From a phage, in NCBI GenBank assembly GCA_011939005.1, contig GCA_011939005.1_4858.1: a stretch of DNA of 64,000 nt. One strand, 5' to 3'. The translations under genes and the position numbers were made by a program. Below, one piece after another: positions 39,477 through 45,443 of this stretch; within the stretch, counting starts at the first letter, position 1; every line of letters starts with the position of its first letter. Under the pieces are notes generated by a model, which saw nothing but the letters and a program-made list of their open reading frames with translations, did no database searches and was not told the origin of the DNA.

Positions 39477-39912
39477 AGCGTTCAATAATCACTCTTACGA
39501 TATCTTCTACCGGAGGGTAATACCACAGAACCACGCTGTTTCGTCCCAAGTCTTTTGGAAACGTTTGACAGTACGCAATGTCGGTGCCGAAGCGCTCAGA
39601 GAGCTTTAAAACGTTCTCTGGGAATTGACAGCCTCCTCGCCAATCATGCGTATAGAGTACCTGCTGTAGTAACTTCACATTAGCATCGAAGAAGTACAGA
39701 TTTTCCACTGGCGCAATATGTGGTACCGGAATTGGCGTGTCTGTAAGTACGAACTCCAAACCACCACATTGTTCTGAACGCTCCGCTAGGAGTTTCAGAT
39801 GCCATGGCATTAGACCGTGGTCTTCCCAGACGATATTGTTGACCAGTAAACGATCAACGTATTCATCGTAATCAACCGTGAACAGTTTCTTCGCCATCGG
39901 TAAACGCCTCAT
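39475..39912 (-). CDS. Hypothetical protein, 145 aa
   Basis: ORF; start region overlaps upstream gene. Confidence 0.5.
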   Translation of the reverse strand: MRRLPMAKKLFTVDYDEYVDRLLVNNIVWEDHGLMPWHLKLLAERSEQCGGLEFVLTDTPIPVPHIAPVENLYFFDANVKLLQQVLYTHDWRGGCQFPENVLKLSERFGTDIAYCQTFPKDLGRNSVVLWYYPPVEDIVRVIIER

Positions 39913-40813
39913 CTTTTACAGTAAGGGAACCGTTTACTTCGATTTCAGCGGCGGTCATGTCTGCTTCTTTAACGAATATACCGTCCGCGTTCAGGAAACC
40001 CTTACGGTCTTTGATTTCATCCCACGCCAGAGAGAAACACTGTTCCAGAGTCATATCGTACGCATTAGCCAGCGCATTGGCGTATTCGACCATCTGCGCG
40101 AAGTGACATTCGATCATTACCGCGTCGCTGTTCTCGAAGTGTTTATATTCGAGTTGCTTAGCTGAGTCGATGCCGGCTTGATCCCAGATGTAATCAACAG
40201 CTGCTGTGAGATGGAAACGCATTTTGTGGAACAAGTAATGACTGTTCCCGGCGTGTGGTTTCTTTGAACGTGCGTCGTTGACGTATGTGCTGATATCGGT
40301 TGAGTCAAACTTAATGAGTTCCATCAAGTTAACCAACACGACCAGAGCATCACCGATACCGTCCATGATGTAACGACGTTTGTTTTTACTGATACCGGTT
40401 GCCGCTTCACCGTCTTCTTCGTAGAGTTTGGTGGCTTGGCTATACCAGACGCCGTTATCCAGAATACCACGCGCTTTAGACCAACCCATAACGTTAGTAA
40501 TACATTGTGGGATGGTGTACAAAGGTACGTAACGCGGACGATCAACCGTACCACGATACTCGACACCTTCCAACGTCCACGGCATTTCGAAATCATTTAT
40601 TTCCAAACGATGGTCGCCTGTGAAGACTTTACCTTCGACGTAAGTGTGACCGGTTTCACTGTTCACGCACAGGGTGTACAGTTTCTCAAAGGACCACGGT
40701 TTAACAAACTGACGTTGGCAGAATCCAGCCAGAAGCTCATTAATCTGTGCCAGGTACTGGTTAGGTTCAACAATAACGTTATACGGAATCTGGATAGTGA
40801 AACGATCGCCCAT
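39872..40813 (-). CDS. Hypothetical protein, 313 aa (C-terminal half weakly reminiscent of all-alpha NTP pyrophosphohydrolase; unverified)
   Basis: Strong SD aaggag; functional guess is low confidence. Confidence 0.55.
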   Translation of the reverse strand: MGDRFTIQIPYNVIVEPNQYLAQINELLAGFCQRQFVKPWSFEKLYTLCVNSETGHTYVEGKVFTGDHRLEINDFEMPWTLEGVEYRGTVDRPRYVPLYTIPQCITNVMGWSKARGILDNGVWYSQATKLYEEDGEAATGISKNKRRYIMDGIGDALVVLVNLMELIKFDSTDISTYVNDARSKKPHAGNSHYLFHKMRFHLTAAVDYIWDQAGIDSAKQLEYKHFENSDAVMIECHFAQMVEYANALANAYDMTLEQCFSLAWDEIKDRKGFLNADGIFVKEADMTAAEIEVNGSLTVKDEAFTDGEETVHG

Positions 40814-43133: not shown

Positions 43134-44171
43134 TTAGATAGCGACAGGCGCAGATATTTTTTCATGGGACTGATACCCGACGATTTCGAAATCTTCGAAC
43201 TTATAATCGAAGATAGAATCCGGTTTACGCTTGATGACCAGTTTCGGTAAAGGTAAAGGTTCGCGCGTCAGCTGCAATTTAGCCTGTTCCAGATGGTTGG
43301 AGTACAGATGTACGTCACCACCACTCCAAACGAAATCGCCTGGAACCATGTTAACTTGCTGAGCTACCATGTGTACGAGTAATGCGTAAGACGCGATGTT
43401 GAACGGTGTTCCCAGGAAGAAGTCTTGGGAACGTGCATACAGCTGACATGAAAGAATGCGGCGAGGTATTTCAAGTGCGTCCATCTCAACGTGGAACACT
43501 GCGTCGTCTGCAACAGCTTCATTACTAAAGCGGGAATCGTTAAATTGATCTGGAAGGTTCTTTTCAAACCAATCAAGACGCTCGTCGATAGACAGCTCAC
43601 GAGTGTAGAACTGAAAGAACGCATGACACGGAGCTAACGCCATTTGATCCAACTCACCCACATTCCATGCGCTGACAATAATACGGCGACTGTCAGGATC
43701 GTTACGCAGTTGGTCAATCACCTTAGAGATTTGGTCGTGTAGTTTCAGAAGTACACGCGCATCGAACATTTGTGAACCGTCGTCCGCGTCGCCATAATCC
43801 ACGTATCCTGCATCTTGCAGTTTCTCGAGTAAAGCTGCATTTTTCTTAGGCACCAGTTTCACATCTTTCCAACGTCTCCACTGTTCCCCATACAGGGGGC
43901 CAAGGTTCCCATTTTCATCTTGCCACTCCCGCCAAATGGTAACGCCGTTATCTTCCAGATATTTGGTGTTGGTATCGCCACTAAGGAACCACAGCAGTTC
44001 GTGAATAATAGAACGCAGGTGGAGTTTTTTAGTCGTGACTAGTGGGAAACCTTTGCGCAAATCAAAACGCATTTGGCGACCAAAGACGGAGAGCGTCCCT
44101 GTTCCAGTACGGTCGCCTTTAACATGCCCTTCATCCAGAATATTCTGCATCGTTTCAAGGTATTGCTTCAT
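43134..44171 (-). CDS. thyA: Thymidylate synthase (ThyA family) with two in-frame insertions
   Basis: Near-colinear match to E. coli ThyA recalled from memory: [125 protein letters not shown]; catalytic Cys in PCH present. Confidence 0.95.
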
Positions 44172-45031
44172 TAGATACTATCCCTCTTTAAGCTTTCAAA
44201 TAAGTAAAGTAGATCATCATTCATCACCACATTCACACCGCCATCTGTGTAGGCTGCGGTTATTTCAGGTACACGTTCGAACAGGATACGATTCCAGCGC
44301 ACTGAGTCACGAACATATTTGTCCAGCAGTTCGTTTAACGTAGTTGCGAGTGCAGCATTGATTGTCGGCAACTCGTCGCGTTTAAACGGCCGGTGGCAAT
44401 AGGGCGCAAGGTGCGTAGCGACACAACTGTCCAGGACAGTCTGGAACATCAGACAGATGGCTGGCCCAGCCATCTGTCTAGAACCAGGCAATTTATCGCC
44501 AGTAAAATCATCAGACGCGGGAACAAACAACCCGATGCCGTTCATTTCACCTTTCGTGTTGATTAGCACACGATGTCCGTTGTATATTACACGGCCGAAT
44601 TCCAGGCCGCAGATACGCGCCAACATTCGGTATTGTCGCGCCAAACTATGCAGCTCGGTAACGTAGCTGTGGGGCTCGTGCTCATCTTGCAATATGAGTC
44701 CAACCACTTCGGTGGCAACAACAAAAAGGTTATGAAGACGGAACTCTTTGGTGTTTCCCGTGGTGCGGTCTTTTATAGCTGCATCCAGTGGAATAACGAA
44801 ATCTCCCACGTTCGTGTGCTTGCCGAAGTGCAACAGACCAACGAACGCCCAAAGAGAGCGACCCATGGCCGCCGCCACTTTCAAGTTGTCCATCTTCTGC
44901 ACACCTTCAGCGACGTCGCCTAATGTGCGATAGAACTTGGCTAGCTGCTGCTCGCGTGTCCCGTATTGGTAAATCTTCGCTTGCCGGTACCAATCATCAA
45001 CCGCCTGAGTCTGCTGAATAATACTAAGCAT
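44171..45031 (-). CDS. Hypothetical protein (about 286 aa; start at ATG 45031)
   Basis: SD aggagg 7 nt before ATG 45031; longer ORF to 45097 would overlap upstream gene. Confidence 0.55.
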
Positions 45032-45443
45032 ACTCTTCCTCCTGATACGCGTAGCAGATTGCAAAGTTAAGCTGGCCGGTTGCGCGAGAAACGACAACGG
45101 CGATAGTCTGGTCTTCTACACCCGACATCGGTGTGCCCTGGTTAACCATTTGACCTGCGGCTTTACTTACCGGACCCAGCAAACGCCAGCTGTACAGACG
45201 GCTACGTAACGCGGCGTTTTGTAAGAAAGCGGAGCCGCAATCATAGTCGATGTTAAACGCCGCAAACATTGGACCACAGTTTGCCATCGTGCCGTTTAAC
45301 GGCAGCTCGCTCGTTACCACAATCTTCACAGGCTTGTCTTTGAGACGTTGTGCTAACGCTTCCCAGTTAGCGTTATTAGTGCCAGCGACGATGGTGTTGT
45401 TCAGAAGTAAGCCAACGCCTTTTTCAAACGCGATATTGTTCAT
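45024..45443 (-). CDS. Hypothetical protein, 139 aa
   Basis: SD aggaga. Confidence 0.5.
   Translation of the reverse strand: MNNIAFEKGVGLLLNNTIVAGTNNANWEALAQRLKDKPVKIVVTSELPLNGTMANCGPMFAAFNIDYDCGSAFLQNAALRSRLYSWRLLGPVSKAAGQMVNQGTPMSGVEDQTIAVVVSRATGQLNFAICYAYQEEEYA

Follow-up and report, generated by a model that had tools for sequence, protein, structure and literature searches.

The 64,000-nucleotide stretch of phage DNA analysed here (GenBank assembly GCA_011939005.1, contig GCA_011939005.1_4858.1; hereafter the window) carries, at positions 43134-44171 of the minus strand, a single ATG-started open reading frame (ORF) of 345 amino acids with its stop codon at 43134-43136. A thymidylate synthase (TS) of the ThyA class is almost certainly encoded by this gene, as indicated by the ORF list, the family profiles and the superposition on E. 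coli TS described below. The phage is a SPN3US-like member of the genus Seoulvirus in Chimalliviridae, the family of nucleus-forming jumbo phages. The role of the enzyme is ordinary; its distinguishing feature is a pair of inserted segments, which are real, conserved among related phages and structurally undescribed. The initial annotation had given the coordinates and the reading frame correctly, except that the gene lies on the minus strand; the plus-strand translation of the same interval is stop-ridden.

The protein matched PF00303 with E = 4e-112 (374 bits vs a cut-off of 24.3) and exceeded the cut-offs of three TS equivalogs in NCBIfam (NF002499, 434.5 vs 405 bits; NF002497, 407 vs 327 bits; TIGR03284, 355 vs 108 bits). 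In a phmmer search, the best match among PDB sequences was the 264-residue E. coli ThyA (E ~ 1e-122), to which residues 1-102, 146-191 and 240-345 were aligned in three blocks corresponding to E. coli residues 1-102, 110-155 and 159-264, respectively, with 193 of 254 core positions (76%) being identical. The first block (43866-44171, minus strand; 76 of 102 residues identical) covers helix A, R21 in the phosphate loop, E58, W80, W83 and Y94. The second block (43599-43736, minus strand) contains R162 and R163, equivalent to R126 and R127 in E. coli, as well as the catalytic Cys182 in the PCH motif (codon at 43626-43628, minus strand), and the third (43137-43454, minus strand) includes the LSCQLY strand, R247, S248, D250, N258, H288, Y290 and the C-terminal APVAI. 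The closeness to E. coli ThyA across all conserved blocks, which was recognised initially from the letters alone, was thus borne out by the family profiles and the alignment.

We checked the active site at 85 alignment positions that are invariant in 72 bacterial ThyAs, and at 29 named residues for catalysis or for the binding of deoxyuridine monophosphate (dUMP) or folate. Eighty-four of the former were kept, and 28 of the latter were identical to those in E. coli, including (in E. coli numbering) Cys146, Glu58, Tyr94, Asn177, Asp169, His207, Tyr209, the four phosphate arginines and the C-terminal APVAI. In the numbering of the phage protein, the catalytic set around P-C-H is present (C182, H183, E58, Y94 and D250), and the four-arginine phosphate site for dUMP is complete (R21, R247, R162 and R163, corresponding to R21, R166 and the partner-subunit R126' and R127' in E. 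coli). Asn177, which selects dUMP over deoxycytidine monophosphate (dCMP), is retained as N258, the Asp found in dCMP enzymes being absent from this position. The folate site and the closing segment are as in E. coli (I79, W80, W83, L179, L253, G254, F257 and V343-A344-I345). The single exception among the named residues is Gln165 of E. coli, which is replaced by Ala at codon 246 (43434-43436); Gln occupies this position in at least 95% of the 72 bacterial ThyAs and in 76% of the insert-bearing representatives described below.

A structural model generated by AlphaFold from an alignment of 96 sequences gave a pLDDT of 96.8 and a pTM of 0.93, and superseded a model based on only 22 close relatives, in which the pLDDT of the core was 54. 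The best structural match in the PDB was E. coli TS (Foldseek E = 2e-45, TMt 0.96; 56% identity over 345 structural columns). Hydroxymethylase models of the gp42 type were far off in the BFVD comparison (TMq ~0.52, 12% identity). Judging from the retained residues, we predict that the protein is a catalytically intact, ordinary TS converting dUMP to deoxythymidine monophosphate (dTMP). A changed specificity is very unlikely, because the active-site residues are kept, the predicted fold is that of E. coli TS and the hydroxymethylase models are distant.

The three core blocks are separated by two insertions, and their net gain (36 + 45 = 81 residues) accounts for the full difference in length between the phage protein (345 residues) and E. 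coli ThyA (264 residues). Insert 1 (residues 103-145; 43737-43865, minus strand) consists of 43 residues replacing seven in E. coli (103-109), a net gain of 36. It sits in the loop before helix H, between W101 and DQI (KDVKLV...AGYVDYG...VLLKLHDQI), the loop that holds the eight-residue insert of eukaryotic TSs, and is predicted to adopt a beta-alpha-beta-beta arrangement (strands at residues 101-108, 124-130 and 137-145, and a helix at 112-120). Insert 2 (residues 192-239; 43455-43598, minus strand) consists of 48 residues replacing three in E. coli (156-158), a net gain of 45. In the model, it lengthens the hairpin strands following the catalytic-Cys strand (residues 183-192 and 238-250), and caps them with four short helices (195-205, 207-212, 217-221 and 223-232). 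The strand next after insert 2, LSCQLYQR, is a segment of the monomer-monomer interface of TS (PMC8041318), so that insert 2 would grow out of the interface sheet. The initial estimate of about 37 and about 40 extra residues was essentially right, and the peptides quoted for the two segments were correct; insert 2 was a little underestimated. Pairwise alignment with E. coli ThyA leaves no doubt that the extra segments are real rather than a misrecollection of the E. coli sequence, and the structural prediction places both as folded modules between the core blocks. TSs in the PDB covered at most ~73% of the model (TMq up to 0.74), with no solved TS covering either insert, whereas the BFVD model of the 457-residue TS of Pseudomonas phage 201phi2-1 (B3FJL1), the top structural match among viral proteins, covered both (TMq 0.91 vs 0.73 for insert-less TSs).

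Insert 2 is itself composed of two anchors and a middle portion. The N-terminal anchor, ELSIDER (residues 192-198; 43578-43598, minus strand), and the C-terminal anchor, IPRRI (residues 235-239; 43455-43469, minus strand), were recognised by aligning 100 diverse cluster representatives, among which the mean identity in the segment was 34%. R198 was conserved in 90%, P236 in 95% and E197 in 71% of the representatives, position 235 was occupied by I or V, and R238 was found in 58%, with Tyr in 16% at the same position. The window protein carries the anchor pair E-R and [IV]-P-x-R of the two-insert TSs (E197, R198, I235, P236 and R238), in an insertion of at least 30 residues between FQFY and LSCQLY. 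The middle portion (residues 199-234; 43470-43577, minus strand), acidic and predicted to be helical, is hypervariable: it ranges from 31 to 93 residues in length, and is net negative in 78% of the members. Insert 1 also has a recurrent motif, W-x-D-[TV]-[KR]-[IV]-V...G-[YF]...[KR]-x-x-DQI, which is shared by the PhiKZ-like TS.

Closely related genes were then compared. The DNA of the TS gene is 97-100% identical to that of phage Lh1B except for codons ~199-239, the middle of insert 2, where only 33-44% of the positions are identical and an indel of two codons is present; Lh1B has had this part replaced as a cassette, and the incoming allele resembles the CR5 type. Relatives with 82-100% identical cores carry at least three alleles of insert 1 and at least five alleles of insert 2 in various combinations, and the sequence is well kept within an allele type. 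Against SPN3US, codons ~51-243 differ by 1-5% and both flanks by 12-20%, the right breakpoint lying at the end of insert 2. Two independent breakpoints, one from each comparison, therefore fall at the end of insert 2, around codon 240, and the TS gene is a recombination mosaic within Seoulvirus. Low synonymous divergence (dS) in the inserts relative to the core, seen between the window and SPN3US, was considered as a signal of selection and dropped: the mosaic block of codons ~51-243 spans core segments too, so that the low dS is not specific to the inserts, and we make no claim of selection from it. Codons 89 and 92 of the TS gene have been reported to be positively selected among SPFM and SPN3US phages (PMC6614189); both codons belong to the core and shortly precede insert 1.

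The inserts are a lineage feature common to related phages, not a peculiarity of the phage in the window. When full-length matches in 50,697 phage records were considered, those at 59-99% identity among cultured phages were found only in enterobacterial Chimalliviridae, namely Seoulvirus, Goslar, CR5, phiEaH2, Asesino, Machina, Wellington, Derbicus and others. Both inserts occur at identical sites in all close homologues and in all Seoulvirus TSs; the TSs of other Chimalliviridae are annotated just as thymidylate synthase or hypothetical protein. At the DNA level, the TS gene is 98% identical to that of Salmonella phage JN03 and 92% identical to that of SPN3US, and the SPN3US counterpart is already annotated as thymidylate synthase. 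A PhiKZ-like TS of 488 residues in Pseudomonas phage 30-1 (LC727696, 601-2067), annotated as 'hypothetical protein', bears both inserts at the same sites, in addition to an insertion of ~110 residues at W83-G88. A profile search for distant carriers returned, as its 120 best matches, enterobacterial chimallivirus proteins exclusively. For distant representatives, the nearest cultured relatives were again these phages, with identities of 52% at most, and one of these representatives lies on a 194-kb contig of ORFans.

A search of 1.84 billion cluster representatives extended the comparison to uncultured relatives. Of the top 150 representatives, 141 could be parsed, and around three quarters of these had at least 15 extra residues at the site of insert 2; insertions at three other TS loops varied independently. 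From these data, chimalliviruses and many uncultured relatives share a structural variant of TS with two inserts, in which the anchors are conserved and the middles can be exchanged; this variant is new relative to the literature searched; publications on SPN3US, Goslar, chimallin or the phage nucleus in connection with thymidylate synthase did not mention the inserts.

The inserts were absent from the best 80 loci of a scan of 185,579 bacterial and archaeal species (one genome per species), in which all genes were 783-831 nucleotides long; the extra segments are thus not shared by ordinary bacterial ThyAs. One candidate for a bacterial insert-bearing TS, P0277, was the top match to the long-TS profile and was rejected. 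It lies in a bacterial thyA-folA-dxr-glmS context (JGI Ga0194118_10008773, 1548-2525), and its apparent insert is a 61-residue tandem duplication of the core, in which LSCQLYQRS...HLYLNHLDQAKLQ is present twice, so that screens by length would take it for an insert-bearing TS. The duplication probably either arose recently or is an artefact of the assembly.

Several database records touched by the searches deserve mention. The SPN3US TS (NC_027402, 6001-7037) is annotated as a 339-residue protein whose start codon is an internal ATG; this annotation probably truncates the protein, because a GTG six codons further upstream marks the beginning of the conserved N-terminal helix (VKQYLEMM...). In several of the SPFM phage records (LR535901-LR535917), megablast split the 1-kb TS gene into 13-14 pieces at ~98% identity, and this fragmentation suggests that some of the SPFM genome assemblies are indel-rich and probably error-laden. 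Many contigs of 220-245 kb whose labels read Salmonella, Shigella, E. coli or 'plasmid' contain the TS gene in SPN3US-like synteny, as does the 222-kb, non-mobilizable 'plasmid unnamed1' of Enterobacter ludwigii (NZ_CP134650) around thyA. Such 'bacterial' contigs look like jumbo-phage genomes deposited as replicons, either a carrier state or contamination being possible. Among the 141 representatives, ~20 had 180-270 extra residues at the site of insert 1. The metagenomic proteins P0122 (554 residues) and P0126 (560 residues) contain in-frame domains of ~200-250 residues at the insert-1 or W83-G88 loop, with the motif W..M..RC.N.....Y..YGG.G..V...W, which looks like an endonuclease-associated DNA-binding domain.

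In the window, a Shine-Dalgarno-like sequence, AAGAGGGA, lies 5' of the TS start codon (44181-44188, minus strand). The start codon itself (44169-44171) shares one nucleotide with the TAA of the upstream gene (TAATG), which encodes a protein of 308 residues (44171-45097, minus strand); translational coupling of the two genes is suggested, because the TAA overlaps the ATG of the TS gene. The 308-residue protein matched phrog_10269 (function unknown) and, weakly, a MazG-like PHROG (phrog_7855, E = 8.4e-6); it was without a match in the Pfam scan. A second MazG homologue was found at 39872-40813, also on the minus strand.

Overall, we consider it rather probable that the gene encodes a conventional Seoulvirus TS with two surface modules acting as structural or contact surfaces. 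The enzyme would supply dTMP for phage DNA synthesis. Insert 1 would fold as a small beta-alpha-beta-beta unit within the loop that precedes helix H, which is variable in eukaryotic TSs as well, and insert 2 would extend the hairpin after the catalytic-Cys strand and cap it with a small, usually acidic helical bundle, held by the anchors at its start (E-R) and end ([IV]-P-x-R) with the middle free to vary. The chemistry would be left unchanged, and the inserts would serve as structural or protein-contact surfaces. For the contact-surface role in particular, our confidence is tentative and falls slightly short of even, although interaction surfaces, as proposed in the initial annotation, are plausible. 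Since insert 2 appears to grow from the dimer-interface sheet, two roles are the most likely for it, namely extending or specialising the homodimer interface, or docking onto a partner from the phage or the host, for instance a complex for nucleotide synthesis. As a third option, the inserts may present a surface that varies in the course of conflict, in analogy to the variable insert in the dUTPases of staphylococcal phages.

A more specific proposal can be attached to the above reading, albeit we regard it as improbable: the inserts, insert 2 above all, may be a recognition surface, either a tether to a nucleotide-synthesis assembly or the nuclear shell, or a target in host-phage conflict. 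If the former is the case, TS, which stays in the cytoplasm in nucleus-forming phages, would be held so that thymidylate reaches the compartment of phage DNA replication. A tether or a conflict surface would explain the discrete, swapped alleles of the insert-2 middle in near-identical genes. In Pseudomonas chimalliviruses, TS fused to GFP was excluded from the phage nucleus (PMC9067925), and a knock-down of the PhiKZ TS reduced plaquing weakly (PMC12571901). Neither result bears directly on the inserts.

Some of our data weigh against the main reading. Pfam and PHROG scans of the genes flanking TS revealed no partner, no modification pathway and no recognisable domains. The 286-residue TS of the Erwinia phage RisingSun (BFVD A0A223LGY3) covered only about half of the query (TMq 0.54); either not every chimallivirus need have a two-insert TS, or the RisingSun gene may be split or mis-called. 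The insertion sites A, 1 and 3 hold many unrelated fillings among TSs, domains of 200-270 residues included, and insertion tolerance alone could thus explain part of the pattern. To these can be added the replacement of Gln165 by Ala, a minor difference in the shell of the active site.

Insertion tolerance leads to the most serious rival explanation, in which the inserts are neutral decorations, that is, segments that drifted into tolerant loops and were kept via anchors entangled with the core. The same loops accommodate unrelated fillings of 10 to 270 residues in other TSs, the middle of insert 2 varies greatly in both length and sequence, and insert-bearing and insert-less TSs are interspersed in a neighbour-joining (NJ) tree of the core columns outside the enterobacterial chimallivirus clade (with weak bootstrap support), all of which neutral decoration would accommodate. 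Nevertheless, neutral segments would hardly be expected to have anchors conserved at 90-95% in a family of 34% mean identity, to fold confidently and superpose on the 201phi2-1 model, to be retained together from Phikzvirus to Seoulvirus, and to be well kept inside allele types. We therefore judge neutrality unlikely, while taking it seriously.

The dimeric nature of TS offers another explanation. TS works as an obligate dimer whose subunits share the active sites, and insert 2, possibly together with insert 1, may specialise the dimer interface in such a way that the phage enzyme pairs only with itself and escapes poisoning or dilution through heterodimers with the 76%-identical host ThyA. 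The core is similar enough to that of the host enzyme for mixing to be conceivable, and the hairpin prolonged by insert 2 belongs to the interface sheet, being followed by LSCQLYQR. On the other hand, the PhiKZ-like TS has the same inserts, though heterodimers would be a lesser concern for an enzyme whose core is only ~55% identical to any bacterial ThyA, and the tip of the hairpin may fall outside the contact area. We find this explanation improbable.

The initial annotation suggested that the gene was acquired recently from an enterobacterium; if so, a host thyA would have been captured and the two segments inserted afterwards. The nearest cellular TSs among the best 80 loci are indeed those of Enterobacterales, and the point-estimate NJ tree placed the enterobacterial chimallivirus clade beside gamma-proteobacterial ThyA, although the bootstrap support was poor. 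Nevertheless, the phage cores share 74-84% of their residues with every Enterobacterales ThyA, whereas the bacterial enzymes share 84-98% among themselves. The identity is marginally highest to Pantoea and Mixta, whatever the phage host, and no phage TS is closest to the enzyme of its own host. The cores of CR5, P0035 and P0283 are nearer to E. coli ThyA than to the window protein, and the core of the PhiKZ-like TS is ~55% identical to everything compared. The insert-bearing phage TSs cover many genera with cores 69-97% identical among themselves, and homologous inserts are also present in Phikzvirus and in TSs whose core identity is 50-65%. Neither a bacterial thyA with a core above 90% identity nor a nucleotide tract shared with the host was found among the best 80 loci. 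The acquisition thus appears not to be recent, as the phage cores are no closer than 84% to any Enterobacterales ThyA and do not track the hosts, and a recent capture is very improbable. The bootstrapped NJ tree did not resolve monophyly of the insert-bearing TSs, and the inserts may have had a single origin followed by losses, or may have spread laterally between TS genes.

The inserts were also suggested to alter the specificity or chemistry of the enzyme, for example so that it would hydroxymethylate dUMP or modify bases in another way. Other phages do have enzymes of the TS fold that produce 5-hydroxymethyl-dUMP or 5-hydroxymethyl-dCMP (PMC7824862), and MazG-like genes lie near the TS gene. 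The active site described above is difficult to reconcile with such a change: the 84 kept positions include Asn177, Cys146, Glu58, Tyr94, the phosphate arginines and APVAI, which is needed for closure, the dCMP hydroxymethylase models match weakly, and the inserts join the core at surface loops between the conserved blocks. We regard altered chemistry as extremely unlikely. To our knowledge, no residue signature is specific to dUMP hydroxymethylases, and this sub-case was judged by overall similarity.

The least credible explanation is that the inserts are remnants of a mobile element (a mini-intein, a homing endonuclease or intron read-through) or the variable region of a diversity-generating retroelement: some distant TS relatives do have large endonuclease-like domains at the same loops and the td genes of T-even phages are intron-bearing (seen as split matches), but the inserts of 43 and 48 residues are far below the size of inteins and homing endonucleases (more than ~130 residues, with their motifs), as was pointed out initially, PF00303 is the only Pfam domain in the protein, an Rfam scan gave no intron or other RNA match at E ≤ 1 within the gene, the reading frame is continuous with no group I intron interruption, GC content and GC at third codon positions (GC3) of both inserts are those of the core, no template or second copy of either insert was found in the 64-kb window at the DNA or protein level, and the difference from Lh1B is a wholesale replacement with an indel rather than an adenine-specific pattern.

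TS is among the best-studied enzymes, yet no solved structure covers the two modules, which mark the TS of Chimalliviridae, a family intensely studied because of its nucleus-like compartment. Should the modules serve to bind a partner, to specialise the dimer or in conflict, a housekeeping enzyme would be tied to the way in which jumbo-phage infection is organised in space or to the arms race with the host. If they are neutral, they still show cleanly, in a natural setting, where TS tolerates insertions, and this can help engineering. Annotators should take the gene as a normal dTMP synthase; it is evidence neither of modified DNA nor of a recent capture of a host gene.

Among known systems, the closest to the window protein are the ThyAs of E. 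coli and other Enterobacterales (EC 2.1.1.45; PDB 2TSC and 1TYS), with which it shares the fold (TM 0.96) and the ligand residues except Gln165, and from which it differs by 81 extra residues in two folded modules. The TSs of other Chimalliviridae (Goslar, CR5, phiEaH2, Asesino, Machina, 201phi2-1 and the PhiKZ-like enzyme of phage 30-1) have both inserts at the same sites, and that of 201phi2-1 also shares the predicted three-dimensional arrangement (TMq 0.91); the window TS is one allele combination of several in this group. PhiKZ-type TSs differ in having an insertion of ~110 residues at a third site and a core of ~55% identity. TS-fold dCMP and dUMP hydroxymethylases (the T4 gp42 and SPO1 gp29 type) have the same superfamily fold, but are only ~12-15% identical (TMq ~0.5), the window TS keeping the ThyA-specific residues.

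Insertions at other sites are known in TSs of other lineages. The enzymes of L. casei and E. faecalis have a 'small domain' insert of ~50 residues at W83-G88, the Firmicute site, where the window protein has no extra residue. The alignment of E. faecalis TS (3UWL) with our model needs 396 columns (345 + 51), so that its 50-residue insert is at a site other than those of inserts 1 and 2. Human TS is eight residues longer than E. coli ThyA at the insert-1 loop and has no addition at the insert-2 hairpin. The Firmicute insert and the two inserts of eukaryotic TSs are a precedent for lineage-specific insertions in the small-domain region of TS; we know of no Firmicute or eukaryotic TS with an insertion at the insert-2 hairpin. 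Phage T4 Td, like the window TS, has surface insertions relative to E. coli TS, which Finer-Moore and colleagues reportedly proposed in 1994 to be contacts in the T4 complex synthesising deoxynucleoside triphosphates (dNTPs). Its sequence has a 51%-identical core and no insertion at either of the two sites, and its gene contains a group I intron, unlike the TS gene in the window. Finally, the trimeric dUTPases of staphylococcal phages, an enzyme of different function and fold that serves as an analogy only, combine a retained catalytic core with a variable, phage-specific insert, motif VI, and this insert mediates a protein-protein (moonlighting) interaction, as described in the Stl-dUTPase literature.

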